NCBI GenBank assembly: GCA_019752125.1
Contig: JAIEMM010000007.1
Span: 1-61,654 of the forward strand
Direction: 5' to 3'
DNA length: 61,654 nt
From: Patescibacteria group bacterium
GTDB taxonomy: Bacteria; Patescibacteriota; Minisyncoccia; Phycocordibacterales; SBAW01
The notes below the pieces were generated by a model. That model made no database searches. It was given only the letters and a program-made list of their open reading frames with translations, and was not told the origin of the DNA. The position numbers and the translations under genes were made by a program. Below, one piece after another: positions 6,844 to 54,828 of this stretch; the stretch's first letter is position 1, and each line of letters opens with the position of its first letter.

Positions 6844-7785
6844 ATGCCAGCAAAAACAACTCCTAAAGATTTCTTTCTCTGGGCAGGGGCAATGGTTTCT
6901 CTCTTTGGCAGTATTGCTGCCTTTATCGGTCTCGTGTTCGATTATATAAACTACGCTTTTCCGGACCCGCTCGCATACTACGTAAGCAATCCATATGAAA
7001 ATGGCGTCGCGTACGAAATGTCATCATTGATTATTCTCGGCGCGCTTTGCTTGGTTTTGATGCGCGTCATTCATAGCACTATCAAGAAAGATCCGACGCG
7101 CGCAGACGTTTGGGTGCGACGTTGGGCACTTTTCCTTACACTCTTTGTCGCAGGCGCCGCTATTGCTATCGACCTTATCGTTCTACTGACCTCGTTCTTG
7201 AACGGTGAGTCGCTCACGACAGCATTTTTGCTCAAAGTTCTTGTTGTGCTCCTCGTCGCAGCAGCTGGCTTTATGCACTTTTTGGCAGACCTTCGCGGCT
7301 ACTGGAATGCAAACCCTACACTCTCAATTCGAGTAAGCGTTGGTGTTGGTATTCTCGTTATCCTTACTATCCTCGCAGGGTTCTTTATTCTCGGGACTCC
7401 TCAGCAGGCACGGCAGATGCGTTTGGACATGCAGCGTGTGAGCGACTTGCAAACCTTACAGGGTGAAATAACAAACTATTATCAACAAAAACAAGCTCTG
7501 CCAAGTTCGCTTGCGGAGCTGAATGACCCCTTGCTCTACAATACAGTTCCAGTCGATCCGGAAACTAATCAGCCCTACGAATACTCAAAAACTGCAAGCT
7601 TAGGATTTGAATTGTGCGCTACATTCAAGGCCGCAAGCAGTGGCAACACACCTTCGCGTACAATGCCAGTGAAAGTAGGTGGCGTTTCTCAGGCGGATAA
7701 CTGGGTACACACGGCAGGTCGCTCTTGCTTCGTGCGTTCGATTGACCCTGATTTTTTCCCTCCACCAACAAAAAACACTCAGTAA
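6844..7785 (+). CDS. CPR-type membrane protein (DUF5671-like N-terminus) with C-terminal pilin/GspG-like domain
   Basis: KDFFLWAGAMVSL start, several TM segments, then TM + RLDMQRVSDLQTLQGEITNYY...DPETNQPYEY...ELCATF. Confidence 0.7.
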   Translation: MPAKTTPKDFFLWAGAMVSLFGSIAAFIGLVFDYINYAFPDPLAYYVSNPYENGVAYEMSSLIILGALCLVLMRVIHSTIKKDPTRADVWVRRWALFLTLFVAGAAIAIDLIVLLTSFLNGESLTTAFLLKVLVVLLVAAAGFMHFLADLRGYWNANPTLSIRVSVGVGILVILTILAGFFILGTPQQARQMRLDMQRVSDLQTLQGEITNYYQQKQALPSSLAELNDPLLYNTVPVDPETNQPYEYSKTASLGFELCATFKAASSGNTPSRTMPVKVGGVSQADNWVHTAGRSCFVRSIDPDFFPPPTKNTQ

Positions 7786-7812
7786 TGCTACGGATGGGCG
7801 CAGTATGACCAC

Positions 7813-10647
7813 ATGGAAAAATACAATCACAAGGAGATAGAAAAGAAGTGGCAGAAGCGATGGGAAGAATCGCAGTTGTATAAAACATCGGAAGATCCGA
7901 ACAAACCAAAAACCTATGTGCTCGACATGTTTCCGTACCCGTCAGGGGAAGGGTTGCATGTTGGCCACCCAAAAGGGTATATCGCAACTGATATTTACTC
8001 ACGTTTCAAGCGTATGCAAGGTCACAACGTACTCCACCCAATGGGATGGGATGCCTTTGGCCTGCCTGCAGAAAACTTCGCAATCAAGAACAAAATCCAT
8101 CCTCGCATTGCAGTTGAGAAAAACATCGCAACGTTCAAAGATCAATTGTCACACATTGGTTTTAACTACGACTGGTCTCGCGAGATAAATACGACTGATC
8201 CTGAATACTATAAATGGACGCAATGGATCTTCCTCCAGCTCTATAAGAAGGGCTTGGCGTATCAGTCAAATGAACCAATCAATTGGTGCCCTTCGTGTAT
8301 GACAGGTCTCGCGAATGAAGACTTGGATGGCAATGTGTGTGAACGCTGCGGCAGCGAAGTTGAAAAACGCGCGCTCCCACAGTGGGTGCTCAAAATCACT
8401 GCCTATGCAGACCGCATGCTTACCGACTTGGACGCGCTCGACTGGCCAGAACATATCAAAACCGCGCAGCGCAACTGGATAGGTAAGAGCGAAGGATCAG
8501 AGATTGAATTTGCGATCGCTGGCAGCGATAAAAAGGTAAAAGTATTTACCACCCGCGCTGACACATTATTTGGCGCAACATTTTTGGTGCTTGCTCCTGA
8601 ACACCCCCTACTTCGCCAAGGCTTCGCAGGGCAAGCTCTCGAAAATCAAAAAGAAGTTGATGAATATATTGCCAAAGCTGCTGCAAAAACAGAAATTGAA
8701 CGTACGAATGTTGAGAAAGAAAAGACTGGCGTAGAACTTAAGGGTGTTAAGGCAATCAATCCCGTAAACAATACAGAAATCCCAATATATGTTGCCGATT
8801 ATGTGTTAACTGGATACGGCACCGGCGCCATTATGGCCGTACCTGCTCACGACGACCGCGACGCTGCATTTGCAAAAAAGTTTGGAATCGAAATACGTGA
8901 CGTTATCTCACAAAAGTTTGATCTTGAAGGAATGCATGCTGAGCGCCCGGATGTCGAAACAATCACTCGTATAGTAGTCGATCCTATCCTTAGAGATAAA
9001 GATAATAATTTTTATCTTATAAAAGAGGGGTCGGAACACGTTCATTTTGCGGGTGGTGGTGTCGAAGAAGGAGAAACTGATGAAGAAGCCCTTGCTCGAG
9101 AAATCACAGAAGAAACAGGATTCACTGATTTTACAATTGGTAGAAAAATACTCCCAAATTCATCTGTTTGGGGTTATCGACATACAAAAAATAAAAACCA
9201 ACGTTCTGTAGGTTACGCGTACGAAGTCGTACTACATTCGGACACTAGGGTACATTCGGAAGTCGAGGATGGAAAACATGAGCTCGTAAAAGTCTCAAAA
9301 GATAAAGTGCTGGAGACTATTACGTGGCCGCATCATAGGTATTTGTTCGAGCAATACTTGGATGAGAAATTCTTTACTGATGATGGAATTCTTATAAATT
9401 CTGGTAATTTTGACGGCCTAACTTCGAAAGAGGCAAGAGTAAAAATTACAGAAGCTGTTGGAGGCAAGATGACTTCAACGTACAAGATTAAAGATTGGGT
9501 ATTTAGCCGTCAGCGATATTGGGGAGAACCTATTCCGATCATTCATTGTCCTAAGGATGGTGCAGTAGCTGTTCCAGATGACCAGCTTCCCGTAACACTT
9601 CCAGAAGTAGAGTCGTATGAACCATCTGGAACGGGCGAGTCTCCACTCGTAAATATTACTGAGTGGGTTAATACGACCTGCCCAACGTGCGGCGGCCCTG
9701 CAAAACGCGAAACAAACACCATGCCTCAGTGGGCAGGTTCTTCGTGGTACTACCTTCGCTTCATGGATCCGAATAACAGCAAGGCGCTTGTTGCACAAGA
9801 CAAAGAGAAATACTGGGCACCTGTGGATGTATACGTCGGCGGCGACCACGCAGTGCGTCATCTTATTTACGCGCGCTTCTGGCACAAGTTCCTCTACGAC
9901 ATCGGCTCAGTTTCTACTATCGAACCATTCGCACGTCTTGAATTCCTCGGATTTATCTTGGCAGAAGACGGTCGCAAGATGAGTAAACGCTACGGCAACG
10001 TCATCGACCCAACTGATGTAGTTGCAACGTATGGTGCAGATGCATTTCGTACCTACGAAATGTTTATGGGGCCGTTTGAAAATACCGTTGCGTGGAGCAC
10101 TTCTTCTATCACCGGCACTGCGCGCTTTATTGAACGTGTATATAAAATTGAACCAGGTTCTACAGAGGTAAAATCTCTCAACCCAATTCTTCATCAAACT
10201 ATCAAGAAAGTTACGGAAGATATTGAAGCATTCAAATTTAATACAGCCATCAGTCAAATGATGATACTTCTGAATGCTATTGAGAAAGAGGCATCTGTAG
10301 GTAAAGAACAATGGGAAAATTTCTTGAGAATACTTGCGCCATTCGCTCCTCATGTAACTGATGAACTCTGGGAAAAACTTGGTCACACAGAATCAATTCA
10401 TCTTTCGACCTGGCCAGTATATGATCCTGCAAAAACAGTTGCCGATACTGTAACGGTCGCAATTCAGGTAAATGGGGTCACAAGGGGATCTATAGATTTA
10501 CCAAAGAATGTTCTTCAGCAAGACGCACTTCTGGAAGCAAAGAAAGTTGTTGAAAAATGGCTTACACAGGAGGTAATTCGAGAAATATACGTACCTGGTA
10601 GGATAATTAACTTTGTTATGGTGTCTCCCCACACCACGGCTTTGTAG
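7813..10647 (+). CDS. leuS: Leucine--tRNA ligase with inserted NUDIX domain
   Basis: MFPYPSGEGLHVGH (HIGH), FTTRADTLFG, GTGAIMAVPAHDDRD editing motif, KMSKR. Confidence 0.98.
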   Translation: MEKYNHKEIEKKWQKRWEESQLYKTSEDPNKPKTYVLDMFPYPSGEGLHVGHPKGYIATDIYSRFKRMQGHNVLHPMGWDAFGLPAENFAIKNKIHPRIAVEKNIATFKDQLSHIGFNYDWSREINTTDPEYYKWTQWIFLQLYKKGLAYQSNEPINWCPSCMTGLANEDLDGNVCERCGSEVEKRALPQWVLKITAYADRMLTDLDALDWPEHIKTAQRNWIGKSEGSEIEFAIAGSDKKVKVFTTRADTLFGATFLVLAPEHPLLRQGFAGQALENQKEVDEYIAKAAAKTEIERTNVEKEKTGVELKGVKAINPVNNTEIPIYVADYVLTGYGTGAIMAVPAHDDRDAAFAKKFGIEIRDVISQKFDLEGMHAERPDVETITRIVVDPILRDKDNNFYLIKEGSEHVHFAGGGVEEGETDEEALAREITEETGFTDFTIGRKILPNSSVWGYRHTKNKNQRSVGYAYEVVLHSDTRVHSEVEDGKHELVKVSKDKVLETITWPHHRYLFEQYLDEKFFTDDGILINSGNFDGLTSKEARVKITEAVGGKMTSTYKIKDWVFSRQRYWGEPIPIIHCPKDGAVAVPDDQLPVTLPEVESYEPSGTGESPLVNITEWVNTTCPTCGGPAKRETNTMPQWAGSSWYYLRFMDPNNSKALVAQDKEKYWAPVDVYVGGDHAVRHLIYARFWHKFLYDIGSVSTIEPFARLEFLGFILAEDGRKMSKRYGNVIDPTDVVATYGADAFRTYEMFMGPFENTVAWSTSSITGTARFIERVYKIEPGSTEVKSLNPILHQTIKKVTEDIEAFKFNTAISQMMILLNAIEKEASVGKEQWENFLRILAPFAPHVTDELWEKLGHTESIHLSTWPVYDPAKTVADTVTVAIQVNGVTRGSIDLPKNVLQQDALLEAKKVVEKWLTQEVIREIYVPGRIINFVMVSPHTTAL
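8606..8635. repeat. 30-nt palindromic element in frame in leuS (LRQGFAGQA)
   Basis: 20/30 nt identical to 24597-24626, with compensatory stem changes. Confidence 0.7.
8915..9370 (+). other. NUDIX hydrolase domain inserted in LeuRS (boundaries approximate)
   Basis: Exact Nudix box G-x5-E-x7-REITEETGF at 9055-9123, between IRDVIS and the LeuRS FTDDGILINSG segment. Confidence 0.9.
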
Positions 10648-10662
10648 TAAAAATAGGGGAAT

Positions 10663-10691
10663 TTGACCAATAGGATAGGGTGTGATATATT
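10663..10691 (+). promoter_or_regulatory. sigma70-type promoter
   Basis: TTGACC-17 nt-TATATT with TG extension. Confidence 0.75.
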
Positions 10692-10708
10692 AGAACACAC
10701 GTAAATAT

Positions 10709-11764
10709 ATGCCGACAGTAAGCCAAAAAACAGCCGACAAGACAGGCTTTAAGCCAAAAGCTATCGCTAAAAAGCTCCTCAGCTCTCTCCCAGAGCGTTC
10801 TCGTGTTGTGCTCGAGCAGCGCTTTGGTTTGGGCGCAAATCCTGAACGCGTTACGCTTGAAGCTATTGGCCAGAAGTATGGCATTACCCGTGAGCGCGTG
10901 CGCCAGATTGAAAACCACGCTCTTGCTGCTCTTAAAAAATCTCCAGCTTTTATTGAAGCAGGTGCTGCGTTTCAGGAACTTGAACGCATCATCGATTCTC
11001 TTGGTGGTATTGTCTGTGAAGACGATCTTTTGAACTTCATCACGAAGGATGCCTCGATGCAGAATCATATCTACTTCTTGCTCGTACTTGGCGACCCATT
11101 TAAATTCCGCAAAGAAGACAATGAAGTAAATCGTTGCTGGTATGTTGACCCAGATCTTGCAAAACAGGTTGAGTCGTCACTCAGAACGCTGTACGCAGGT
11201 CTTTCGGACGAAGATCTTATCCCAGAAGGTGAAATGATTGATCGTTTCTTGAAAGAACTCCAGACTATCAACGACAAGCATCGCAACGATGAGATTTTGA
11301 AGCGCTGGTTGGCTATCTCGAAGAATATTGGCAAGAATCCGCTTGGCGAATGGGGTCACTCAGCATCTCCAAATGTTAAAACTAAAGGCGTTCGTGACTA
11401 CGCATATCTCGCAGTAAAGAAACACGGATCCCCACTACACTTCCGCGAAGTCGCTCAGCTTATTGAGAAAACGTTTGGTCGCGCAGCTCACGTTGCAACA
11501 ACCCACAACGAACTTATTAAAGACGACCGTTTCGTTCTTGTTGGCCGCGGTATGTATGCGCTTAAGGAATGGGGATACACATCGGGCGTTGTACGCGACG
11601 TTGTACGCGAAATTCTTCGCTCAAACGGACCTCTCACAAAAGATGAAATTATCGAAAAGGTGATGAAGGAGCGCCATGTTAAACCAGGCACCATCGTTGT
11701 AAACCTCCAGAATCAGAAATACTTCAAGCGAGGCAAAGACGGACGATTTTCTCTAGTTAAATAG
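10709..11764 (+). CDS. DNA-binding protein: sigma70 region-4-like HTH plus C-terminal winged HTH(s) (HARE-HTH / RNAP delta-like)
   Basis: RFGL...TLEAIGQKYGITRERVRQIE; PLHFREVAQLI...HNELIKDDRFVLVGRGMYALKEWG. Confidence 0.75.
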   Translation: MPTVSQKTADKTGFKPKAIAKKLLSSLPERSRVVLEQRFGLGANPERVTLEAIGQKYGITRERVRQIENHALAALKKSPAFIEAGAAFQELERIIDSLGGIVCEDDLLNFITKDASMQNHIYFLLVLGDPFKFRKEDNEVNRCWYVDPDLAKQVESSLRTLYAGLSDEDLIPEGEMIDRFLKELQTINDKHRNDEILKRWLAISKNIGKNPLGEWGHSASPNVKTKGVRDYAYLAVKKHGSPLHFREVAQLIEKTFGRAAHVATTHNELIKDDRFVLVGRGMYALKEWGYTSGVVRDVVREILRSNGPLTKDEIIEKVMKERHVKPGTIVVNLQNQKYFKRGKDGRFSLVK

Positions 11765-11772
11765 CTCCCGCA

Positions 11773-11800
11773 AAAAACTCCCGAAGTAAGGGAGTTTTTT
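11773..11800. terminator. Bidirectional intrinsic terminator
   Basis: AAAAACTCCC-GAAGTAA-GGGAGTTTTT between convergent genes. Confidence 0.85.
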
Positions 11801-11807
11801 GTTTCGA

Positions 11808-12185
11808 CTAGTGCCCGCCACCACCACCTGTAAACAGCTGTTTTTTTATAAAGATAAAAACCCAAAGAAGTATGCCGACTCCGGCAAACCAGTATCCAAG
11901 GGTTGTTTGGGTGCCGTCGTTAAATCCAAACCACGACGCCATCGTACGGACGATCTCCCATACATAAAAGAGTGCAAAAAGCATAAGGACGCCATGCACT
12001 TGGCGCGTAAGGGCATGCTCTAAGTGTTCTTCGTGTGCGTCCATTTTAAAAATGTTACCGACACTTCCCAGCCATCCGCGCAGAAAAAGAAGAAACGCAA
12101 GAGCTGCTAGAAAAGCAAATAACGCTTCAACGTAATGAAATGGGGTAGCGAGTACTTTATCCCAAAAATCAGCAAACCAGATCAT
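11808..12185 (-). CDS. Hypothetical membrane protein (3 TM)
   Basis: Three hydrophobic segments; divergent from 12210 with overlapping -10 boxes. Confidence 0.7.
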   Translation of the reverse strand: MIWFADFWDKVLATPFHYVEALFAFLAALAFLLFLRGWLGSVGNIFKMDAHEEHLEHALTRQVHGVLMLFALFYVWEIVRTMASWFGFNDGTQTTLGYWFAGVGILLWVFIFIKKQLFTGGGGGH

Positions 12186-12209
12186 AGGCTTTGCGGTATA
12201 CTATAGCAT

Positions 12210-13577
12210 ATGATCCTGCATCACGAGGCAGAGAAGGTCCGGGAATTTATGGACGCATGGCATCTCGAAGAGAGTGTCTTTATGCCGATCGCCCTCCTCT
12301 TACTCATTTGGTATGCGGCAGTGTATGATCCGGCAACTATTCCAGCAACACTCGCTATGGTGGTCGCGCTTTCTCCTATATGGCTTCCACTTTTTTTAGG
12401 GATCAGCCTGTATGTCACTTGGATACACTACGTGCGCTATAAATTTTGGTTCTCACGAGAAAAAGGGTTGCTCGAGATACAGCTGCCAGCCGAAGTAACA
12501 AAGTCACCGGCCGCAATGGAGGTGTTCCTTGACTCTATATGGACAACAGGAGGTGAAACAACATTTCTCGACCGTGTTTTGAGAGGAGGTTATAAATCAA
12601 CGTGGTCGCTTGAAATTGCATCGAACGAAGGCCGTATAAGTTTTTATCTCCATGGGCTTAAGGCATGGCATCCAGCAATTGAAGCTCGTCTGTACGGGCA
12701 GTTTCCTGAAGCTCGAGTAATTGCTGTGGACGATTACGTCAGTAAAATACCTTTTAACTTAGACGAATACGAAATTTGGGGCGCAGAATACATGAAGAAG
12801 GATCCGCAAGCTTCTCCCATAAGAACCTACGTGGACTTTGAGCTTGATAAGAACACTGATACGCCAGAAACGAAAGTCGACCCACTGACTAATATTTTGG
12901 AATTAATGAACAATGTGGGCAAAGACCAGTATTTGTGGTATCAGCTGATTCTTAAGGCACACAACACGTTTGAATGGTATGGCTTCCCAGAAAAAGAAAG
13001 TCAGTATGTCGAAAAAGGTAAAAAACACATAGCAAAAATTATGGAAGGAGCAGCTACTCGAAGCAAAGGAGTGCAAGCGGCCGTAAAAGAAGAGGGTACA
13101 AACACTGCTTCTCCAACAATGTCATTAACAGAAGGTGAGCGCGATATTGTGAAAGGTATTGAGCATTCGCTTACTAAAAACCCATTTGAAGTTGGTATAC
13201 GCGTACTCTACATAGCAAAGAAAGATAAATTTCACGGTATTTGGGGCGCGTACCTCTTCCGCATGTTTCAAGTATTTAAATCAGCTGGAAACGGCATTGG
13301 TGGTAAGGGTGGGCGCGGAATGGTCCGGTTTGACTATCCATGGGAAGACTTTATGGGTATTCGCGAGAAAGTTGTAAAAAACTTACTCTTCTTCCACTAT
13401 AAGTATCGAGCGTATTTTGGTGTGCCGTATGACCAAGTGCCTTCGATTATGACCACAGAAGAAGTCGCAACGCTCTGGCACTTCCCGTACTCAAACGTTC
13501 AAACGCCTGGCCTTAACCGTGTGCCATCGAGAACTTCGCAGGCGCCTACAAACTTACCGACTCTGCCAGGTCAATAA
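12210..13577 (+). CDS. CPR conserved membrane-anchored protein resembling the N-terminal region of CPR VirD4/TraD-associated proteins
   Basis: 2 N-terminal TM; LLEIQLP, WSLEIAS, PIRTY, DPLTNILE, EEVATLWHFP motifs recalled from this family; no Walker A. Confidence 0.55.
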   Translation: MILHHEAEKVREFMDAWHLEESVFMPIALLLLIWYAAVYDPATIPATLAMVVALSPIWLPLFLGISLYVTWIHYVRYKFWFSREKGLLEIQLPAEVTKSPAAMEVFLDSIWTTGGETTFLDRVLRGGYKSTWSLEIASNEGRISFYLHGLKAWHPAIEARLYGQFPEARVIAVDDYVSKIPFNLDEYEIWGAEYMKKDPQASPIRTYVDFELDKNTDTPETKVDPLTNILELMNNVGKDQYLWYQLILKAHNTFEWYGFPEKESQYVEKGKKHIAKIMEGAATRSKGVQAAVKEEGTNTASPTMSLTEGERDIVKGIEHSLTKNPFEVGIRVLYIAKKDKFHGIWGAYLFRMFQVFKSAGNGIGGKGGRGMVRFDYPWEDFMGIREKVVKNLLFFHYKYRAYFGVPYDQVPSIMTTEEVATLWHFPYSNVQTPGLNRVPSRTSQAPTNLPTLPGQ

Positions 13578-13578
13578 T

Positions 13579-14529: not shown

Positions 14530-14555
14530 TCTAAATAAATGGTACTGTCCGTAGT

Positions 14556-15617: not shown

Positions 15618-15637
15618 CTGAAGGCTATACTTAGCCT

Positions 15638-16045: not shown

Positions 16046-16046
16046 T

Positions 16047-16880: not shown

Positions 16881-16912
16881 AGCTATACTTTTTAATCAAT
16901 AAATAGCGGCGT

Positions 16913-18050: not shown

Positions 18051-18881
18051 ATGAGTTCGTTCTACAAACCAAATCGAAGGCCCGATTATAATTATGGAGG
18101 TCCAAAATGGACGCTTTCTCGTTCAAAAATTGACCTCTTTATGGAGTGTAGTCGGTGTTTTTACATCGACAACAAACTTGGTGTTGCGCGCCCACCTGGT
18201 TTTCCATTTAACTTAAACTCAGCAGTAGACGCATTGCTAAAAAAAGAGCTCGATACGCATCGTGTAAACGGTACCCAGCATCCACTTGCAAAAGAGTATG
18301 GCCTTGATGCAATTCCACTCGCTCATGCAAAAATGGACGAGTGGCGCAACGCGCTCAGCCAAGGAGTGAAGTACGTACACCCAGCGACAGGCCTTACAGT
18401 ACGTGGAGGTGTTGACGATATCTGGGTAAACAAAGACGGCGAGCTTATCGTTATTGACTACAAAGCGACGAGCAAAGATGGAAAGATAGAATCTCTCGAT
18501 GAAGATTGGCATCGCGGATATAAGCGCCAGTTGGAAATATACCAATGGTTGCTTCGCATGAACGGATTCAAAGTATCCGATACGGGGTATTGGTTCTATG
18601 CAAACGCAACAAAAGACCGCGAAGCGTTTGATGCACGCCTCGACTTTGAGCTTACGCTTGTCCCATACACAGGTTCAACAGACTGGGTTGAAGATGTTCT
18701 GATACGCCTCAAGGCATGTCTCGACAGCGATGCATTGCCTCCAGCAGGGGAAGAGTGCGACTACTGCCGGTATCGTGAGGCTGCAGGGAAGGCTCTTATA
18801 AAATTCATTCCTTTAAAATCAAAAAAAATTGCTAAAGAAGAACCCGAATATGAGACACCTGAAAACTCCACCCTCTTCTGA
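18051..18881 (+). CDS. Stand-alone PD-(D/E)XK nuclease (AddB/Cas4-like)
   Basis: LSRSKIDLFMECSRCFY, GGVDDIW, IVIDYKAT, QLEIYQWLL, ECDYC. Confidence 0.85.
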   Translation: MSSFYKPNRRPDYNYGGPKWTLSRSKIDLFMECSRCFYIDNKLGVARPPGFPFNLNSAVDALLKKELDTHRVNGTQHPLAKEYGLDAIPLAHAKMDEWRNALSQGVKYVHPATGLTVRGGVDDIWVNKDGELIVIDYKATSKDGKIESLDEDWHRGYKRQLEIYQWLLRMNGFKVSDTGYWFYANATKDREAFDARLDFELTLVPYTGSTDWVEDVLIRLKACLDSDALPPAGEECDYCRYREAAGKALIKFIPLKSKKIAKEEPEYETPENSTLF

Positions 18882-19592: not shown

Positions 19593-20275
19593 GAAACCCA
19601 GTCTATTTCTGTGCGATTGTTTTGTTTTAAATATTCGTTTGCGAGTTTGAAGTGGTTGCAACCAAGAAAACCTCTGTGTGCTGAAAGTGGGGAAGGGTGT
19701 ACAGATTTTAAAATTTTGTGTTTTGAAGAATCTATCTCCAATTCTTTCTTACTTGCAAACGCACCCCACAGCATAAAAACAATATTCTCCTCTTTCGCAG
19801 AGAGTGCTTTAATCACCGCATCTGTAAACATATGCCAACCATACTTTGCGTGTGAGTTTGCAAGACCACTCTTTACCGTAAGAGAAGCATTGAGCAGAAG
19901 CACGCCCTGCTTTGCCCAGCGAGTTAAGTCAGAATCTCTATTTATAGACGTGCCGTACTCGAGCTCTATCTCTTTAAAAATATTTAGCAGCGATGGAGGA
20001 ATTTTGTTCGCACTTTCTGTTGAGAAAGAGAGGCCGTGTGCCACACCTGGTGTGTGGTACGGATCCTGTCCTAAAATAACTACTTTTGTATCTTCTGGGT
20101 CAAAGTAGTCGAATGCGCGAAATATTTTCGATGGATGAGGGAAGACTTCTCCATGCAAATACTCCTCCCGCACTTTGGCAGAAAGCTCTTTGAAGTACGT
20201 TTTTTCAAATTCCTCTTCGACGAGTGTCTTCCAAGCTGGAGGTATCTTTACGTTCGAATGTTCCGAAGCGCTCAT
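19589..20275 (-). CDS. ung: Uracil-DNA glycosylase (family 1)
   Basis: VILGQDPYH, GVLLLNASLTV, HPSPLS; start set at 20275 with TATACT 7 nt upstream. Confidence 0.97.
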   Translation of the reverse strand: MSASEHSNVKIPPAWKTLVEEEFEKTYFKELSAKVREEYLHGEVFPHPSKIFRAFDYFDPEDTKVVILGQDPYHTPGVAHGLSFSTESANKIPPSLLNIFKEIELEYGTSINRDSDLTRWAKQGVLLLNASLTVKSGLANSHAKYGWHMFTDAVIKALSAKEENIVFMLWGAFASKKELEIDSSKHKILKSVHPSPLSAHRGFLGCNHFKLANEYLKQNNRTEIDWVS

Positions 20276-34562: not shown

Positions 34563-34599
34563 AAAAAGAAATCCCCCAACCAGTTGCCCGGTTGGGGGA
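34563..34599 (-). terminator. Intrinsic terminator
   Basis: TCCCCCAACC/GGTTGGGGGA 10-bp stem with T-rich tail on - strand. Confidence 0.8.
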
Positions 34600-34616
34600 A
34601 GGGGGAGGGCTGGGTA

Positions 34617-36966: not shown

Positions 36967-38043
36967 ATGGCTGCTAAAAACTACTACGATATACTAGGAA
37001 TCCAGAAGAGCGCAACCAAAGACGAGATCAAGAAGGCGTTCCATAAACTCGCGCACAAACTCCACCCCGACAAAGCGAGCGGTGATGCAGATAAATTTAA
37101 AGAAGTAAGTGAAGCGTACTCAATCTTGAGCGATGAAAAGAAGCGCGCAGAGTACGACTCGTACGGCCGTGTTTTTGGAGGTGGTGGCGCCCCAGGCGGT
37201 GGTGGGTTTAACGCAGGCGGGTTCGACTTCTCACAATTTCAAGATGCATTCCAGGGAGGTTTTGCCGGATTCGATTTTGGCGACATCTTTGGCGAAGCCT
37301 TCGGTGGTGGAGGCAGACAGCGCCTCGGCCGCGATATTTCTATCGACCTCGAACTTTCATTTAAAGAAAGTGTTTTCGGTGTAAAACGCACCGTACTTCT
37401 TGCAAAAACAGCTCAGTGCGAAACATGCAAAGGTTCGGGTGCAGAGCCAGGTAGCAAAATGGAGACGTGCAAATACTGCAACGGTAGCGGCAAACTCCAC
37501 GAAACAACAAACTCATTTTTTGGCCAGATAACGATGCAGAGTCCATGCCGCCACTGCCACGCAAGTGGTAAGGTCCCAGATCAGAAATGTCACACCTGCC
37601 GCGGGGAGGGTGTCTACAAAAAACAAGAAGAGATCGACATCGTCGTACCTCCAGGTATTGAAGGTGGCGAGATGATCCGCCTCACAGGCGCAGGCGAAGC
37701 TGTGCAAGGAGGCTCTTCAGGCGACCTATACGTCAAAGTCCATGTACAAAACGACCCACGTTTTAAGAAAGACGGACAGAACCTCATAACAGAGCTTTCT
37801 ATCAAACTCTCGGATGCGCTTTTAGGTAGCGAATATAAAGTTCAATCGCTCGACGGTGATGAAAATCTTTCAATTCCACCTGGCGTAAACCATGGCGAAC
37901 TTTTGAAAATAAAAGGCAAAGGTGTAGCTAGCACTCAAGGCAAACGTGGCGACCTTATTGTTCGTATCAAAATAAATCTCCCATCAAAAATCTCCCGCAC
38001 TGCAAAAAATTTGATCGAGAAGCTCAAAGAAGAGGGGATATAA
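36967..38043 (+). CDS. dnaJ: Chaperone DnaJ
   Basis: J-domain HPD, G/F-rich linker, four CxxCxGxG-type repeats. Confidence 0.98.
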   Translation: MAAKNYYDILGIQKSATKDEIKKAFHKLAHKLHPDKASGDADKFKEVSEAYSILSDEKKRAEYDSYGRVFGGGGAPGGGGFNAGGFDFSQFQDAFQGGFAGFDFGDIFGEAFGGGGRQRLGRDISIDLELSFKESVFGVKRTVLLAKTAQCETCKGSGAEPGSKMETCKYCNGSGKLHETTNSFFGQITMQSPCRHCHASGKVPDQKCHTCRGEGVYKKQEEIDIVVPPGIEGGEMIRLTGAGEAVQGGSSGDLYVKVHVQNDPRFKKDGQNLITELSIKLSDALLGSEYKVQSLDGDENLSIPPGVNHGELLKIKGKGVASTQGKRGDLIVRIKINLPSKISRTAKNLIEKLKEEGI

Positions 38044-39318: not shown

Positions 39319-39537
39319 TTAGTAGACCTGGAAATTGCCGATCTCGTCGAATCTTCTGGCCGCCTCGTTGGCGGGAGCGATGTTCCAGCCGTCGGGCAGA
39401 GTGTCGCCAAAGGCAAGGCCTGAATGGCCCGGAGCTTTGACGAAGATATAGATCCCGTCGGGCTTGCGGCGACGGACAACTCCGCCTTGATCGGTACCCC
39501 ACACAGGGTAGGGATATTCTGCGTTCTGATCGGCCAT
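39319..39537 (-). CDS. Small hypothetical protein (72 aa); accessory cassette
   Basis: TTGACG-18-TATAAT promoter (39615-39586), SD AAGGAGG, long hairpin 39267-39311 downstream. Confidence 0.7.
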   Translation of the reverse strand: MADQNAEYPYPVWGTDQGGVVRRRKPDGIYIFVKAPGHSGLAFGDTLPDGWNIAPANEAARRFDEIGNFQVY

Positions 39538-47223: not shown

Positions 47224-47230
47224 ATTAACT

Positions 47231-48358: not shown

Positions 48359-49676
48359 TGTAGTAACTCGTGTAGCGCCTTCGCCTACAGGCCAGATGCA
48401 TATTGGCACAGTCCGTACGGCTTTGTTTAATTATATTTTTGCTAAACAAAACGGAGGCACATATCTTGTCCGCATAGAAGACACCGACAAAGAACGCAAT
48501 AGGGAAGAGTGGGTTGATGATATCTGGCAGGATTTCCAGTGGTGTGCACTTACACCAGATAAAAAATATCGACAGTCAGAACACGTCGGACGCCACAAAG
48601 AATTACTTCATTCTCTTGTTAATTCAGACAAGGCCTACGTTTCTAAAGAACCAAAAAAAGACGATGCTTCACAAACGGTAGAGGTTGTTCGACTACGAAA
48701 CCCAGGCGGGAAGGTAACGTTTACCGATCTTATCCGTGGGGAAGTGACAATTGATACGACAGAGCTGGGAGACTTTGTTATTGCCCGTTCTATAGATGAC
48801 CCTCTCTACCACTTCGCAGTAGTGGCTGACGACGGCGACGCCGGAGTGACTCACGTTATCCGTGGAGATGATCATATTTCAAATACACCAAGACAGATTT
48901 TGATTTTGGAAGCACTCGGTTTCCAGCGCCCTGTGTACGCGCACCTTCCGCTGATTCTTGCACCAGACCGCTCCAAACTTTCAAAGCGCAAACATGGCGC
49001 ATCGCTAGAAAATTATCGCGGACAGGGTTTTTTGCCTGAAGCAATACTCAACTACCTCGCACTGCTTGGATGGAACCCTGGCACAGAAAAAGAGTTGTTT
49101 ACACTTGATGAGTTAATCAAAGAGTTTTCGCTTGAGCGCGTTCATAAAGCTGGCGCTGTGTTTGATATTGAAAAAATGAAATGGTTTAACCACGAGTATA
49201 CAAAAATGCTTTCGCTCGAAGAGTACGAAAAGCAACTCTCTGTCTTTATTGAATCGCGCGGAGAAACCGTACCTCCATACATGCCAGCTATATGTACAGA
49301 GCTTCGTAATAGGGCTCAAACGTATGGTGAAGCCGCCAACTTTTTAATAGATGGCGAATTTTCTTTTATGGAAGAAACTATCCCCACTCCCACTACAGAC
49401 CTTCTATTAAAAGGAGCTAAGGCCAGCGCAGAAGCGGTTAAGACACATTTGCAGGCGGTACTGGAGTTACTCGGCAACCAAGAAGGTTTTACGGCAGACT
49501 CAGTGAAGGAACTTGTGTTCCCCTACGCCACAGAAAAGGGGAGGGCTTCAGTACTATGGCCTATGCGCGTAGCTTTGAGTGGAAAAGAAAAATCACCTGA
49601 CCCCTTCACGCTCGCAGGACTTCTTGGGAAAGAGAGAACACTTGAACGCATTGAGAAAGCCTTCCAATTGCTTTAA
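48348..49676 (+). CDS. gltX: Glutamate--tRNA ligase
   Basis: RVAPSPTGQMHIG, RIEDTD, IRGDDH, KLSKR. Confidence 0.97.
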   Translation: MSNNVVTRVAPSPTGQMHIGTVRTALFNYIFAKQNGGTYLVRIEDTDKERNREEWVDDIWQDFQWCALTPDKKYRQSEHVGRHKELLHSLVNSDKAYVSKEPKKDDASQTVEVVRLRNPGGKVTFTDLIRGEVTIDTTELGDFVIARSIDDPLYHFAVVADDGDAGVTHVIRGDDHISNTPRQILILEALGFQRPVYAHLPLILAPDRSKLSKRKHGASLENYRGQGFLPEAILNYLALLGWNPGTEKELFTLDELIKEFSLERVHKAGAVFDIEKMKWFNHEYTKMLSLEEYEKQLSVFIESRGETVPPYMPAICTELRNRAQTYGEAANFLIDGEFSFMEETIPTPTTDLLLKGAKASAEAVKTHLQAVLELLGNQEGFTADSVKELVFPYATEKGRASVLWPMRVALSGKEKSPDPFTLAGLLGKERTLERIEKAFQLL

Positions 49677-49685
49677 AGTAGAGTA

Positions 49686-50924
49686 ATGCTCTCACTGTTT
49701 GCTTCTTTGCTACTTTTGTTTGCCCCTATAGCTCACGCTCAGACACCGAGCGATGTGCAGGCGCAGATAGATACCAATACTACGCAGATACAACAACTGC
49801 AAGCAGAAATTGCACAACTGCAAAAGCAACTCGATGCAACCTCCAAACAAAAGCAGACTCTCCAAAATGCAATCAACGAAATTGCTCTTAACATCAAGAA
49901 GATAAATACGACCATTACGCTTACTAATGCGCAGATCGTCCAAAAAGACAAAGAGATAAATCGTCTCTCCGGAAGTATCTCAACTACAACGGACGAGATA
50001 GGGGTAGTCGCGGATGAAATTGGAAGTTCACTCCAGCAGTTAAACATGCTCGACAATGAACCACTGGCTCTTGTCATTTTAAGCGGTGCAGATATTTCAT
50101 CAGTGTTCGATACAGAAAATGCACTCGAGTCAATTCGAAGCGGCCTTCAAAACAGAACAACAGAACTTCAGCATCTGAAAAGCAATCTCGTTAGCACAAA
50201 AAATACAACAACGCAGCAGCGTGCACAGCTAGCGACGCTCAAACAAAATCTCGCGCAACAGAAAACCAGCTTAGGATTGGCCCAGCAATCACAAACGCAA
50301 CTTCTCGCACAGACTAAAAACCAAGAGAGTTCATACCAAGCACTTATTGCACAGAAAAAAGCAGAAGAGGCGGCCTTTGAAGCAGAGCTGGTGAAGCTTG
50401 CGCAAGGACTCGGTACGGCTGATGTTTCAAGCGCAGCTGCAGCTAGACGTGGAATATTGAAATGGCCCCTCGACAACGTTGCCATCACGCAATATTTTGG
50501 GAACACTTCGTTCGCCCAATCTGGTGCATACAGTGGCCAAGGCCACAATGGTATAGACTTCCGCGCACCAATCGGTACGCCAATTAAAACAGCTCTTACT
50601 GGAACAGTGCAGGAAATAAACTTGGGCGCCGTTAAGAACTGTCAGTACGGAAAATGGGTGCTTATAAAACACGACAACGGTTTGACCTCGCTGTATGCCC
50701 ACCTTTCGTCCATTACAGTAAATAAAGGGGACAGAGTGCTAACAGGACAGGTGATAGGGTATGCAGGCGATACAGGCTACGCAACTGGCCCTCACCTCCA
50801 CCTCACAGTATATGTATCGAGCGCAGTCAGTTTTAAAACCTATACATGCAACAGCGGTAAAACTGCATATATTCCCATCGCACCTCTCAACGCGTACTTA
50901 AACCCTCTCTCGTATTTGCCATAA
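49686..50924 (+). CDS. Secreted coiled-coil protein with M23 peptidase domain (EnvC/CwlO-like)
   Basis: Signal peptide, long coiled coil, HNGIDF, YAHL, TGPHLH. Confidence 0.93.
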   Translation: MLSLFASLLLLFAPIAHAQTPSDVQAQIDTNTTQIQQLQAEIAQLQKQLDATSKQKQTLQNAINEIALNIKKINTTITLTNAQIVQKDKEINRLSGSISTTTDEIGVVADEIGSSLQQLNMLDNEPLALVILSGADISSVFDTENALESIRSGLQNRTTELQHLKSNLVSTKNTTTQQRAQLATLKQNLAQQKTSLGLAQQSQTQLLAQTKNQESSYQALIAQKKAEEAAFEAELVKLAQGLGTADVSSAAAARRGILKWPLDNVAITQYFGNTSFAQSGAYSGQGHNGIDFRAPIGTPIKTALTGTVQEINLGAVKNCQYGKWVLIKHDNGLTSLYAHLSSITVNKGDRVLTGQVIGYAGDTGYATGPHLHLTVYVSSAVSFKTYTCNSGKTAYIPIAPLNAYLNPLSYLP

Positions 50925-50993
50925 AAAAATACTATATACTTATGGGTGAGCGGTGGTGGTCGAGCCGCATAAATCTCTAACATATTTTACACT

Positions 50994-51215
50994 ATGAAAG
51001 TAGTACATATGGTTGCGTTTATTCTTCTCGTGGTCGGCGGCTTGAACTGGGGCCTCGTTGGTCTTGGCAACTTCGCTGGTAGCGATTGGAATATCGTGAA
51101 CATGCTCCTTGGCTCATGGCCAATGGTTGAACAGGCTGTCTATGTCCTTGTAGGCGTCTCAGCAGTATGGCTTCTCATCGGTCACAAGAAAGCCTGCAGA
51201 GAGTGCTCAATGTAG
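50994..51215 (+). CDS. DUF378 family small membrane protein
   Basis: LLVVGGLNWGLVG...VYVLVGVSA. Confidence 0.9.
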   Translation: MKVVHMVAFILLVVGGLNWGLVGLGNFAGSDWNIVNMLLGSWPMVEQAVYVLVGVSAVWLLIGHKKACRECSM

Positions 51216-51232
51216 TAGGCCAGTTTTTTAGT

Positions 51233-51261
51233 AAAAATCCCCGCCTTTGGTGGGGATTTTT
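51233..51261. terminator. Bidirectional-type terminator
   Basis: AAAAATCCCCGCC-TTT-GGTGGGGATTTTT. Confidence 0.8.
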
Positions 51262-51285
51262 ACGTATATGCTATACTCTTCATCT

Positions 51286-52035
51286 ATGAGCACGAACGCT
51301 ATATCTATTAAGAATCTACGTAAGACCTATAAGACGGGCACGCAGGCGCTCAAGGGAGTCGACCTCGACATCGAGGCGGGCGATTTCTTTGCACTCTTGG
51401 GGCCTAACGGGGCAGGGAAGACCACTATTATCAGCATCATTACCAGCCTCACCAGAAAGACCGAGGGCGAGGCTAAAGTGTTTGATATATCGATAGACGA
51501 GGACCCTGACCAAGCAAAAACCTACATTGGTCTTGTGCCGCAGGAGTTTAACTTCAATATTTTTGAAAAAGTAATCGATATCGTAACCACCCAAGCTGGG
51601 TACTACGGTATCCCACGCAAAATTGCGATTGAGCGTGCAGATGAAATTCTTAAAGCACTCGGTCTGTGGGACAAGCGCAACACTATGGCGCAGCAGCTTT
51701 CAGGAGGTATGAAGCGCCGCCTTATGATCGCTCGCGCGCTCGTCCACAAACCAAAACTTCTTATTCTCGATGAGCCGACCGCGGGTGTCGACATTGAAAT
51801 GCGTTTGGGTATGTGGGACTATCTTCGCCGCATAAACAAAGAGGGCACGACCATCATCCTTACCACTCACTACTTGGAAGAAGCAGAGCAGCTTTGCCGC
51901 ACGGTTGCCATCATAAACAAAGGGGAAGTGAAGTTGCATAAACCTATGAAAGAGCTTTTGGAAGGAGATGGAGGAGAGAAGCTTGAAGATGTATACCTTG
52001 GAATTATTCAGGAAGATAACAAAGACAACAAATAG
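51286..52035 (+). CDS. ABC-2 type transporter ATP-binding protein (YadG-like)
   Basis: GPNGAGKTT, LSGGMKRR, LDEPT; TGCTATACT 8 nt before ATG 51286. Confidence 0.93.
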   Translation: MSTNAISIKNLRKTYKTGTQALKGVDLDIEAGDFFALLGPNGAGKTTIISIITSLTRKTEGEAKVFDISIDEDPDQAKTYIGLVPQEFNFNIFEKVIDIVTTQAGYYGIPRKIAIERADEILKALGLWDKRNTMAQQLSGGMKRRLMIARALVHKPKLLILDEPTAGVDIEMRLGMWDYLRRINKEGTTIILTTHYLEEAEQLCRTVAIINKGEVKLHKPMKELLEGDGGEKLEDVYLGIIQEDNKDNK

Positions 52036-52036
52036 T

Positions 52037-52810
52037 ATGACAGGATCTCAAATGTGGACCTCGTACTACACGATGGCCCGAAAAGAATTTGTGCGCATGA
52101 TACGTATCTGGTCGCAGACCCTTCTTCCACCTATCGTCACAACAAGTCTCTACTTTGTAGTGTTTGGCTCCTTCATCGGCTCCCAACTTGCTGAAATTAA
52201 TGGTTTCAGCTACATGCAGTTTATCGTGCCAGGCCTCATCATGATGTCGATGATCACCAGCTCATACATGAACACGGTGTCGACCTTCTATTTTGCAAAA
52301 TGGCAGCGCACGCTGGATGAAGTTCTTGTATCACCAACACCAAATTGGATTGTTATCGCAGGCTTTATCAGCGGGGGAATGATGCGTGGACTTATGGTGG
52401 GAGCCTTAGTGCTTCTTGTGTCACTCTTCTTTACGCACCTTGCGATCCACAGCGTGGTTATACTCGTGCTTGCAGGCATCCTTACAACAATGCTGTTCTC
52501 ACTTGCCGGCCTTGTAAACGGCATATTTGCAAAAGGCTTTGACGGTATCTCTATTGTTCCAACATTCGTTCTCACCCCGCTTACATACCTGGGTGGCGTA
52601 TTCTACTCAGTAAACCAATTCTCAGATTTCTGGCGCACGGTATCGCTGTTCAACCCGATTCTCTACATGATCAACGCCTTCCGTTACGGCTTCCTTGGCA
52701 TTAGTGATGTATCGATTGCCTTTAGCTTCTCAATGCTTGTGACAGCCAACGTAGTGCTCCTTGCACTCACGGCGTACTTGTTTAAGAAAGGGTGGGGCTT
52801 CAAGAACTAA
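52037..52810 (+). CDS. ABC-2 type transporter permease (YadH-like)
   Basis: QTLLPP, YMQFIVPGLIMM, PLTYLGGVFYS, NPILYMINAFRYG. Confidence 0.93.
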   Translation: MTGSQMWTSYYTMARKEFVRMIRIWSQTLLPPIVTTSLYFVVFGSFIGSQLAEINGFSYMQFIVPGLIMMSMITSSYMNTVSTFYFAKWQRTLDEVLVSPTPNWIVIAGFISGGMMRGLMVGALVLLVSLFFTHLAIHSVVILVLAGILTTMLFSLAGLVNGIFAKGFDGISIVPTFVLTPLTYLGGVFYSVNQFSDFWRTVSLFNPILYMINAFRYGFLGISDVSIAFSFSMLVTANVVLLALTAYLFKKGWGFKN

Positions 52811-53475
52811 AAAAGTTTTTGTGGCTTCTTGCCTCGCTTCCACTCAGTAAATTTGAGTGTATTGCGTTCAAGAGGGGAGGTCTTGCGTAAGCGTCTACGC
52901 GCGCTGTTTGCAATGATAGAAATGTGGGGCGACTCATCTAACTCTTCAGCAACGAAATCAAGATGCCCTTCCTTCCCCTCTGAGACAACCCATTGCTCTG
53001 GCTTATATCGACGTAGGTCGAATGGTTTTGAAAATGCCTTTAGGGTTTTGACGCCGTCATCTAGATAGTATTCGTGAAAATATGACATCGCGAGCTCTCG
53101 CGGGGTTTTATACACAGCATCGCGCCAACGCAACACAGCATGGTTAGTTTTACTTATTGCACCCCACCCGCCCTTTTCTTGAAAGAGGGTGACAACGTGG
53201 TCGTCGTCGTGCGCAAGCGTCTGCAGATCTAAAAGAAGAGGCTTGTGGCCATGGTAGGCGAGAGCGGCGGCGGCAAACAGCGCGCCTTCCATACAGTGAG
53301 CCACTCTTTCCCTTAGCATCTGACGAGGGGAACGGAGCGTGTCTCCGCGGGGTTCAAAATTTATAGGTAGGCTGTCGAGATAATCCTGTATCTTTTGAGG
53401 AGTATCCAATCGAGAAAAAACCTTGTGCTCCTCCTTCGTTAACAATTTCTTCAGGTTCTTTGTATACACTTTCAT
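52807..53475 (-). CDS. Hypothetical protein, transglutaminase-like (Cys-His)
   Basis: AHCMEGALFAAAAL, DDDHVV, WGAISKTNH. Confidence 0.75.
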   Translation of the reverse strand: MKVYTKNLKKLLTKEEHKVFSRLDTPQKIQDYLDSLPINFEPRGDTLRSPRQMLRERVAHCMEGALFAAAALAYHGHKPLLLDLQTLAHDDDHVVTLFQEKGGWGAISKTNHAVLRWRDAVYKTPRELAMSYFHEYYLDDGVKTLKAFSKPFDLRRYKPEQWVVSEGKEGHLDFVAEELDESPHISIIANSARRRLRKTSPLERNTLKFTEWKRGKKPQKLF

Positions 53476-53534
53476 ATGTACCAGCTCATCCGTTTAGAGT
53501 CGTATTTATATTTAACCACATTTAGTTACCATCT

Positions 53535-53690
53535 ATGTTATATACCATTGCAATCGTCTTATTGATCTTGTGGCTACTGGGTATCGTCTCGTCGTACACC
53601 ATTGGCGGGTTTATTAACATCCTGCTTGTTGTCGCCGTAATCCTCGTCCTTATCCGCCTTATCCGCGGAGAGAAACCGTTCAATATATAA
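53535..53690 (+). CDS. lmo0937-family small membrane protein (51 aa)
   Basis: Manual translation MLYTIAIVLLILWLLGIVSSYTIGGFINILLVVAVILVLIRLIRGEKPFNI. Confidence 0.85.
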   Translation: MLYTIAIVLLILWLLGIVSSYTIGGFINILLVVAVILVLIRLIRGEKPFNI

Positions 53691-53724
53691 AAAAACCGTT
53701 CACCTCGGGGGAGGGAACGGCTTT
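53691..53724. terminator. Bidirectional terminator
   Basis: CCGTTC...GAACGG stem with A-run before and T-run after, between convergent ORFs. Confidence 0.7.
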
Positions 53725-53738
53725 GAATACTGTCGAGG

Positions 53739-54233
53739 CTACCCACGCTCGTACGAAGAGAGCGCGTACGAAGAGGGCATAAAACGAAACGCGCTACCAG
53801 CCTTGATGGAATCCTGGCACCTGCGAACATCTTCCACCGCCAACCGACGCCCGAGAGGGTCGATCGCCTTGCTGCCGCTGACCTTGTTCCAGATGAGAGC
53901 TTTCGCCTTGTCGGCCTCGTCCCCAAAGAGCTGGATGATGGTGCCCTCCACCTTCATCTTGGAGACGTTCACCTGGTTGTAGCTGCCGTAGAGAGTGACC
54001 TCCTGCGTGGCGGCAAAGAGCTGGATCATCTCCGGATCTGCCGTGCAGAATATGACTTCTTGGGTCGCACCATCCTTCTCGCTGAAGGCGATAATGGCGC
54101 AGTGCCGTAAAAAGTCTTGACTCTCTTCTGGTTCGAAAGGATGTGCGTCGCCACGAGCCTTGAAGAACATGCTCCAGATGTGGGGCAAGTGTTTTACCCC
54201 ATTGTGCACGCTGAGAGGCTTGTACTGAGACAT
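53739..54233 (-). CDS. GC-rich hypothetical protein (164 aa); accessory cassette
   Basis: SD AAGGGAG before ATG 54233; GC-rich codon usage. Confidence 0.75.
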   Translation of the reverse strand: MSQYKPLSVHNGVKHLPHIWSMFFKARGDAHPFEPEESQDFLRHCAIIAFSEKDGATQEVIFCTADPEMIQLFAATQEVTLYGSYNQVNVSKMKVEGTIIQLFGDEADKAKALIWNKVSGSKAIDPLGRRLAVEDVRRCQDSIKAGSAFRFMPSSYALSSYERG

Positions 54234-54310
54234 TTTTCTCCCCTTTTTTGTAAGAACTTCCTGCACAAATTACCATACTCTCTCCGCAAATCAACAGAGA
54301 AGAGAAAAGA

Positions 54311-54336
54311 AAAAGCCACTCTTTCGAGGGGCTTTT
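54311..54336. terminator. Bidirectional terminator
   Basis: AAAAGCC-A-CTC-TTTC-GAG-G-GGCTTTT. Confidence 0.75.
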
Positions 54337-54359
54337 GATTGGGTAGGGGATCTAGTCGC

Positions 54360-54530
54360 TTATGGGTGCGTATGCACCTTCGGATAGCGCCAGTTTATAA
54401 CCATGCCCAACACGTAGATCAAGGCGACCGCCAAGGGTCCCCACCATCCGAACGCGTTGTAGGCCATGATGGCCAACAGCAAAATGAAGCCGTGGGCCAT
54501 CGTCACAGTCCCAATCCTTATGCCACCCAT
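54360..54530 (-). CDS. Small membrane protein (56 aa); accessory cassette
   Basis: Manual translation MGGIRIGTVTMAHGFILLLAIMAYNAFGWWGPLAVALIYVLGMVINWRYPKVHTHP; SD GGGAGAG. Confidence 0.65.
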   Translation of the reverse strand: MGGIRIGTVTMAHGFILLLAIMAYNAFGWWGPLAVALIYVLGMVINWRYPKVHTHP

Positions 54531-54828
54531 TTCGCTCTCCCAAGTTACGTTGAAGAAGTTAGGTAATATACTCTCAACAAGTCCTAAAGAACTATATCAC
54601 GTTTTTTAATTTTAGCAATACACCCAAGGCATATTAGTAGGGAAGGGCTTCCCTGTTTTTTTGGAGAAAAAATTTTCAACAAATTTTTATAGTTTTTTAT
54701 CAAACCAAACGGTAGGGATATCAGAAATAATTCTCAGACAGGTGCAGGGAAGAGAACAGGGACACAAAGTACAAGTCGTGATTCAACGGATCCAAGCCCA
54801 AGGGGATACTGAATTTTAATATAGGTAT

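Follow-up and report, generated by a model that had tools for sequence, protein, structure and literature searches.

Probable KOPS-type polar words converging on a dif-like site in a genome of Candidatus Adlerbacteria

The window studied here is a stretch of 61,654 bases that makes up the entire contig C5 of a 702-kb, 14-contig genome (98.9% complete) of Candidatus Adlerbacteria, a bacterium of the candidate phyla radiation (CPR). Its + strand carries 12 copies of the octamer GGGNAGGG, the word known from Escherichia coli as the FtsK-orienting polar sequence (KOPS), and these are probably part of a chromosome-wide set of KOPS-type polar words that converges on a dif-like site at 54829-54856. 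The words are polar independently of gene strand and of GC skew, their polarity inverts at dif and at the origin, and it is conserved across the family, the class and other classes. An earlier note on this DNA had proposed KOPS-type octamers pointing toward a dif-like site in a CPR organism, and this proposal is supported by the one-stranded counts, by the inversion at the site and by the presence of an FtsK gamma domain.

Strand polarity of the octamer in the window and across the genome

A pattern search in both orientations found GGGNAGGG 12 times on the + strand of the window and not once on the − strand, and each of the 12 + coordinates listed in the earlier note proved exact. Shuffles that preserve the dinucleotides gave 3.40 ± 1.66 copies over both strands, with a maximum of 8, and 12 copies were reached in 0 of 100 shuffles. 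This agrees with the rough expectation of about 2 copies per strand in the earlier note, which had put the GC content at about 46%; the measured value is 47.3%. The 12:0 strand split has by itself a two-sided binomial p of 4.9e-4.

The earlier note had proposed exact counts per strand genome-wide as a check, and these are one-stranded contig by contig. The +:− counts are 1:8 in C1, 9:0 in C2, 1:6 in C3, 13:1 in C4 and 12:0 in the window (C5), with 0:3 in C6, 1:8 in C8, 0:3 in C9, 0:3 in C10 and 3:0 in C11. Over the whole genome, 70 copies lie on the majority strand of their contig and 4 on the minority strand.

The GC skew was decomposed into a replication term and a transcription term, using the mapped long open reading frames (ORFs). 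The sign of the replication term corresponds to the strand of GGGNAGGG in 10/10 contigs with a clear term; in the window this term is −0.007, i.e., about 0. When ten contigs (587 kb; window excluded) are oriented by GC skew alone, 55 copies of the octamer fall on the leading strand and 4 on the lagging strand. By skew, GGGNAGGG then ranks 15th of 49,127 octamer families with one N, and 9th of 47,429 families when the window is included. For the genome as a whole the leading:lagging count is 67:4, which corresponds to a skew of 0.94 and to 1 copy per 9.7 kb.

Polarity of this kind could also arise from gene orientation combined with codon or ribosome-binding-site usage, given that most genes run with replication. 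Indeed, 79% of the coding bases of the window are on the + strand, one form of the octamer, GGGGAGGG, is Shine-Dalgarno-like, and several copies are intergenic and purine-rich. This origin was rejected by the equal density of the octamer in both gene orientations. Leading-strand genes (369 kb) carry 33 copies on their leading (coding) strand and 2 on the other. In lagging-strand genes (163 kb) the template strand, which is the leading one, has 15 copies and the coding strand 2, so that the densities are 0.089 per kb for the former and 0.092 per kb for the template of the latter. Moreover, all three reading frames are represented among the copies, and the copy at 19690 is antisense within a real UDG-family gene; its orientation therefore follows the replication arm and not the gene. 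An origin in gene strand, codons or Shine-Dalgarno sequences is thus highly improbable.

The copies in the window are listed below, with their surroundings taken from a crude, ORF-based gene map.

6881-6888, + strand: GGGCAGGG, copy 1, within the + strand gene of a DUF5671 protein
7946-7953, + strand: GGGAAGGG, copy 2, within the + strand gene leuS
19690-19697, + strand: GGGAAGGG, copy 3, on the template strand of a − strand UDG-family gene (69.6 bits)
34596-34609, + strand: GGGAAGGGGAGGG, overlapping copies 4 and 5, intergenic, directly 3' of a hairpin at 34573-34598
37603-37610, + strand: GGGGAGGG, copy 6, within the + strand gene dnaJ
39506-39513, + strand: GGGTAGGG, copy 7, intergenic on the ORF-based map
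49538-49545, + strand: GGGGAGGG, copy 8, within a + strand Glu/Gln-tRNA synthetase gene
51410-51417, + strand: GGGCAGGG, copy 9, within a + strand ABC-transporter ATPase gene (51247-52035)
53708-53715, + strand: GGGGAGGG, copy 10, 1.1 kb from dif, in an area of unannotated − strand ORFs
54341-54350, + strand: GGGTAGGGGA, copy 11, intergenic, 0.5 kb from dif; the full extended word (GGGNAGGG plus GNAGGGGA)
54640-54647, + strand: GGGAAGGG, copy 12, 182 bp from dif, in a small hairpin AGGGAAGGGCTTCCCT that is followed by a T run

As the earlier note had it, three copies (53708, 54341 and 54640) are less than 1.2 kb away from the dif-like site. The copy nearest to dif forms one arm of the hairpin AGGGAAGGGCTTCCCT (54638-54670, + strand), after which comes TGTTTTTTT; this hairpin is terminator-like and has no + strand gene upstream.

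The dif-like site and the inversion of polarity

The dif-like site divides the window as follows (counts are +:−).

1-54828, + strand: replication arm with + as leading strand; GGGNAGGG 12:0, GNAGGGGA 10:1, RNAGGGRA 38:6
54829-54856, no strand: dif-like site ACGTCGCACAA-TATACC-TTTTGCGACGC, 28 bp, with 11-nt inverted arms and a 6-nt centre
54857-61654, − strand: start of the other arm with − as leading strand; RNAGGGRA 1:9, GNAGGGGA 0:2

To the right of 54856, GGGNAGGG occurs in neither orientation, as the earlier note recorded, but this is uninformative alone because the remaining 6.8 kb would be expected to hold about 0.7 copies. The inversion of skew that the note expected at about 54.8 kb is seen with related words. 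The counts of RNAGGGRA differ between the two sides with a Fisher p of 8e-6, and its last + copy (54744) and first − copy (55375) bracket the site. Taken together, the hexamers AGGGRA and RGGGGA count 65:11 on the left side of the site and 5:12 on the right side (Fisher p = 1e-5). A change-point fit to these independent hexamers puts the maximum-likelihood switch at 55.36 kb, within a support interval of 54.8-57.9 kb, and a model with a switch is better than one without by 16 log-likelihood units.

Because GC skew is uninformative in the window, the window was scored instead by a log-odds classifier of 6-mers for which only the other contigs had served as training set. The classifier gave +20 to +70 per kb in nearly all 2-kb bins up to about 52 kb, one bin being negative, then about 0 at 52-56 kb; beyond 56 kb, the values up to the end of the window lie between −21 and −53. 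Its cumulative maximum lies at 52,956, and the + strand is called leading up to about 53 kb and the − strand beyond about 56 kb. Genes also converge at the switch: those up to 52.8 kb lie on the + strand and those from 55.4 kb onward, among them rplI and a C-terminal processing protease, on the − strand.

Some features around the site were observed in passing. At 52807-54543 and 55406-57504, dif is flanked by mostly short ORFs without a Pfam match, an orphan-gene stretch at the terminus. Just to the right of dif, the 19-nt sequence GGGGATTGACGACTTCCCT occurs twice on the + strand, 186 bp apart (55361-55379 and 55547-55565). Each copy has a −35-like TTGACG and, about 17 nt downstream, a −10-like TAATTT or TAGTAT, and looks like a repeated promoter module. 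The arms of GGGGATTGACGACTTCCCT each contribute one + and one − word of AGGGRA type, which blurs the polarity switch.

The dif-like site is single-copy in the genome. Inverted repeats of 10 nt with spacers of 6-8 nt, when searched for generically, gave 230 matches in the genome. Most of these are terminators and tRNA stems, and the architecture alone is thus not discriminating. Similarity to the canonical site was likewise dropped as an argument, since about 12/28 positions match E. coli dif by eye; conservation and position are therefore the argument. With a pattern that leaves the centre free and allows up to 3 mismatches, the site was found in 81/88 genomes of the family (5 genera), typically as one good copy each, and the free centre is conserved as TATA(C/T)C. 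Some of these genomes contain extra, weaker matches with 3 mismatches, and the control search with the reversed pattern was mostly empty. The site is also present in far more distant genomes, where FtsK is only 52-58% identical, and, beyond this class, in two further families of the phylum. As a single-copy site of 11-6-11 architecture at the junction of replichore polarity, in a genome that encodes a Xer recombinase, 54829-54856 qualifies as a putative Xer/dif dimer-resolution site; its sequence makes it a divergent member of that group. The genome encodes a single tyrosine recombinase, of 314 aa, on contig C4, which scores about equally with the profiles of XerD (239.5 bits), XerC (236.3 bits) and XerA (235.5 bits).

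The coincidence of the site with the inversion extends to relatives. In seven of them (G018, G001, G035, G027, G088, G089 and G136) the dif-like site is the switch point of both polarity and GC skew, and GGGNAGGG itself flips there. In G018, of the same genus, a 548-kb contig carries GGGNAGGG on the − strand up to 154 kb, on the + strand at 152-409 kb and again on the − strand from 431 kb, with dif at 416,103 and with the minimum and maximum of cumulative GC skew at 150 and 410 kb. In G001 (another genus), G035 and G027, the octamer counts 15:0 left of dif and 0:12 right of it (p = 6e-8), and in G027 the copies closest to dif stand at distances of 44 bp on its left and 168 bp on its right. The complete chromosome of G088 (OZ246398.1; 742,714 bp, 37% GC), whose FtsK is 54% identical, has 34 copies on the leading strand and 1 on the lagging strand, with dif at 614,658, between a + copy at 612,053 and a − copy at 616,467. 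In G089 (44.5% GC) the count is 28:1, and dif at 51,702 lies between + 51,125 and − 53,294. Outside this class, other families of the phylum gave 14:1 (G098), and G136, from a different class with 63% GC, gave 20:3 with the flip at its own dif-like site; G119, also from another family of the phylum, gave 5:0. Skews of 0.88, 0.97 and 0.97 were obtained for the octamer in relatives, and pooled over eight genomes its count is 223:23.

In the 55 kb of the window that adjoin the terminus, mononucleotide GC skew is close to zero and word polarity is strong; in G018, at 360-410 kb, GC skew fades near the terminus and word polarity is still strong. In C4, the polarity changes from − to +, as at an origin, near 5-12 kb. 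The single xer gene (3.7-4.6 kb) is close by, and dnaA (about 32.4 kb, + strand) sits inside a + polar stretch, so that the origin may not adjoin dnaA. In C11 the word polarity changes from + to − at about 15-20 kb, within a region of about 15-28 kb and with no dif-like site there; this stretch may have been inverted locally or acquired as an island.

The polar words and their likely reader

The octamer belongs to a nested family of polar words with the core GNAGGG and an extended consensus of about GGGNAGGGRA. With the window excluded, the leading:lagging counts are 186:19 for AGGGGA, 86:6 for GNAGGGGA and 70:2 for AGGGGANA, and the most frequent polar core, AGGGRA, has 1 copy per about 1.5 kb. 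Among some 47,000 octamers with one N, 22 reach a skew of at least 0.85 in both this genome and G018, and about 19 of the 22 are shifted forms or close variants of the one extended word. Within this group, over-representation puts GGGNAGGG in 3rd place, and its overall rank is 5th.

From an order-5 Markov model fitted to the leading strand, 43.4:8.6 copies of GGGNAGGG would be expected; the observed count is 67:4, which indicates that the hexamer background explains much, though not all, of the skew. In four genomes the observed and expected leading-strand counts are 67/43.4, 45/23.9, 34/22.2 and 28/18.2, a modest over-representation of 1.5-1.9 fold with a combined p of 3e-8. The most consistent word across eight genomes is GNAGGGGA, with skews of 0.81-1.00 and a pooled count of 356:22. 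It is polar (38:4) also in G118, from another family of the phylum, where a dif-like site ACTTCGCACAAGATACATTGTGCGACAT stands at the GC-skew switch. GGGNAGGG and GNAGGGGA overlap by six positions and are inseparable in silico; as candidates for the word that is read, GNAGGGGA and RNAGGGRA are at least as good as GGGNAGGG.

The earlier note had suggested looking for a gamma domain in FtsK, and one is present. The single FtsK of the genome (779 aa, contig C7) contains PF09397 at 95.3 bits, and this domain aligns over its full length to the gamma structures of Pseudomonas aeruginosa and E. coli, 2VE8 and 2J5P (E = 1e-10). In E. coli, joint mutation of FtsK R1300, E1303 and E1306 results in a protein that is blind to KOPS (PMC2680272). 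The corresponding residues are R, D and E in the recognition helix GYARAARLIDILEE, two identical and one conservative; the helix is conserved across Paceibacteria and is also present in G118, where GGGNAGGG is not polar. The gamma domain was found in 249/251 sampled Patescibacteria genomes.

As the words are on the leading strand of both arms, they point from the origin to the single dif at 54829-54856. From these parts, a mechanism can be proposed in which the winged-helix gamma domain of the sole FtsK would load on the words in one orientation. FtsK would then pump DNA toward dif at the closing septum, where the single Xer recombinase would resolve chromosome dimers.

Several observations weigh against this proposal. 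The octamer GGGNAGGG is not the top word, given that AGGGGA (186:19), GNAGGGGA (98:7) and RNAGGGRA (372:40) are as polar or more so and far more frequent, and the order-5 Markov model already gives a skew of 0.83 from hexamers, compared with the 0.94 observed. G-runs in general lean to the leading strand, so that context-dependent mutation may account for some of the signal. Copies are not consistently enriched toward dif: the window has 12 copies in 54.8 kb where the rest of the genome would predict 5.5 (2.2-fold, p = 0.011), but no such enrichment is found in G018. In G118, GGGNAGGG is not polar (10:7), yet the gamma helix (GYARAARLLDILED) is identical to that of the polar genomes. Co-variation of gamma helix and word as support for GGGNAGGG as the exact word therefore failed, and G118 argues that the word read is closer to GNAGGGGA. 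FtsK-gamma is the probable reader on the strength of the parts of the system.

The mutational component has to be weighed as an explanation in its own right, in which G-runs would mutate in a strand-asymmetric, context-dependent way as DNA is replicated, polarity would be a side effect with no reader, and GGGNAGGG would be polar through its two G-triplets. Skew climbs with G-run length, from 0.56 for GG to 0.61 for GGG, 0.70 for GGGG and 0.80 for GGGGA, and dozens of G-rich words are polar, which together with the hexamer background fits such an origin. The window, however, is without net GC skew and still shows 12:0 for GGGNAGGG and 38:6 for RNAGGGRA, and the same specific words are polar from 36% to 63% GC. 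Skew also depends on the flanks (0.91 for AGGGGA versus 0.63 for AGGG), and neither the excess of the octamer over the Markov expectation in four genomes nor the concentration of the most skewed families on shifts or close variants of one word is in line with G-runs alone. Mutational asymmetry of G-runs contributes (GGGG 0.70) but does not suffice, and as the whole explanation we consider it unlikely.

Another strand-specific machine could read the words in place of FtsK, for instance if they marked Chi-like recombination hotspots at which an end-processing nuclease acts, or served as signals for priming or repair. Chi sites are short, G-rich and likewise polar from origin to terminus, AGGGRA is denser here than any known KOPS, and G118 keeps the gamma helix and has lost the polarity of GGGNAGGG. 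Against this, E. coli Chi is weakly skewed here (0.65-0.68), the words flip 0.05-3 kb from dif in most genomes, as a dif-directed pump requires, and FtsK-gamma is near-universal in the phylum. A search with PF12705, the one domain family used, found no nuclease-helicase of the size of RecB, AddA or AddB and matched only ORFs of 276 and 306 aa; the absence from this search of a large PD-(D/E)XK helicase-nuclease such as RecBCD, AddAB or AdnAB weakens the Chi reading. A reader other than FtsK has a small probability. A small stand-alone PD-(D/E)XK nuclease-domain ORF is present in the window at 18114-18779 (+ strand; PF12705, 48.7 bits), and a second one in C1 at about 21.8-22.3 kb.

Comparison with known systems and implications

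The KOPS or FRS (FtsK recognition sequences) of E. coli, Vibrio cholerae and P. aeruginosa are 5'-GGGNAGGG-3', also GNGNAGGG, and are read by three FtsK gamma domains (PMC3384302, PMC2680272). The E. coli KOPS has a skew of 0.91, rank 24, a frequency of 1 per 12.6 kb and a skew of 1.0 in the dif region (PMC3384302), and the leading-strand skews of known KOPS and SRS (SpoIIIE recognition sequences) range from 0.79 to 0.91. The KOPS-type words of the present genome resemble this system, with values that equal or surpass those of E. coli KOPS: the octamer consensus is the same, with a skew of 0.94, rank 9-15 and 1 copy per 9.7 kb, the dif-region skew is also 1.0, polarity switches at dif, and FtsK has a homologous gamma domain in which R1300 and E1306 are identical and E1303 is replaced by D. 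For the dif region (7% of the genome), Nolivos asks of KOPS at least 1 copy per 40 kb and a skew of at least 0.9 (PMC3384302). In this genome, the ±24.6 kb around dif, within the window, hold 9 copies of GGGNAGGG, all on the leading strand, and the leading-strand fraction in the dif region is 6/6 in G088, 2/2 in G018 and 3/4 in G089.

Differences from E. coli are found in the host, a CPR bacterium whose genome measures about 0.7 Mb, and in the best-supported word, which is probably shifted by 2 bases to the 3' side (GNAGGGGA or RNAGGGRA) and is much denser, with about 1 copy per 2 kb. The dif-like site is near-palindromic and is accompanied by one Xer instead of XerC plus XerD, and N1296 of the gamma helix is A or S.

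The SRS of Bacillus subtilis, 5'-GAGAAGGG-3', is read by SpoIIIE gamma, as cited in PMC3384302. It has in common with the present words the 3' half NAGGG and the nature of a polar octamer with an FtsK-family gamma domain as reader, here a probable one, and this shorter NAGGG is all that is shared, whereas the core GNAGGG is common to the KOPS/FRS of E. coli. The SRS family GAGNAGGG has skews of 0.63-0.75 in 3/4 Paceibacteria genomes and 0.89 in G089, compared with 0.88-0.97 for GGGNAGGG. The heptamer of Lactococcus lactis is weakly skewed here.

The architecture-imparting sequences (AIMS) of Hendrickson and Lawrence (2006) are skewed leading-strand octamers that define replichore architecture, with KOPS as a subclass (PMC5993296). 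The words described here are likewise skewed octamers on leading strands; AIMS differ in that a rise of abundance and skew toward the terminus is demanded, and this rise, as given above, is present in the window and absent from the relative G018.

Xer systems with a single recombinase include XerS/difSL, XerH/difH and the archaeal XerA/dif with archaeal short polarized sequences (ASPS) (PMC5357621). The present genome is similar in having one Xer gene, a symmetric 11-6-11 site and polar words that converge on dif, and its recombinase exceeds the NCBIfam cut-off for XerA (235.5 bits versus 220). It differs from these systems in that xer is on another contig and does not adjoin dif, from XerS and XerH in that the 314-aa recombinase has the size of XerC/D, and from the archaeal system in that FtsK has a gamma domain and the words are KOPS-like and not ASPS of the GTTG type.

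To our knowledge, experimental demonstrations of KOPS-guided segregation are limited to a few Proteobacteria and Firmicutes. In the published view, the guide word differs from family to family. In the paper library that was searched, no paper connects KOPS or dif with CPR or Patescibacteria. The present observations suggest that episymbiotic bacteria with minimal genomes keep the full logic of FtsK-gamma, polar word, Xer and dif, with a word that is almost that of E. coli and with a single Xer.

It is possible, at somewhat below an even chance, that a guide word with the core GNAGGG (KOPS GGGNAGGG, SRS GAGAAGGG and CPR RNAGGGRA) is ancestral to the bacterial FtsK-gamma/dif system and was kept across Patescibacteria from 36% to 63% GC, and is not a proteobacterial speciality that was re-invented in each family. 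If this were the case, word polarity together with the conserved dif would place origin and terminus independently of GC skew and serve to check CPR assemblies. Even with a flat GC skew, such as that of the window, polar words mark the replication arms. They help to orient contigs and to locate origin and terminus, and they can reveal inversions or misassemblies in metagenome-assembled genomes of CPR bacteria.

Among the genes that carry a copy of the octamer, leuS (7813-10647, + strand; 944 aa) encodes a product with a NUDIX hydrolase domain, PF00293, at residues 387-512 (E = 1.6e-10). This insertion in leucyl-tRNA synthetase is located directly after the editing domain.

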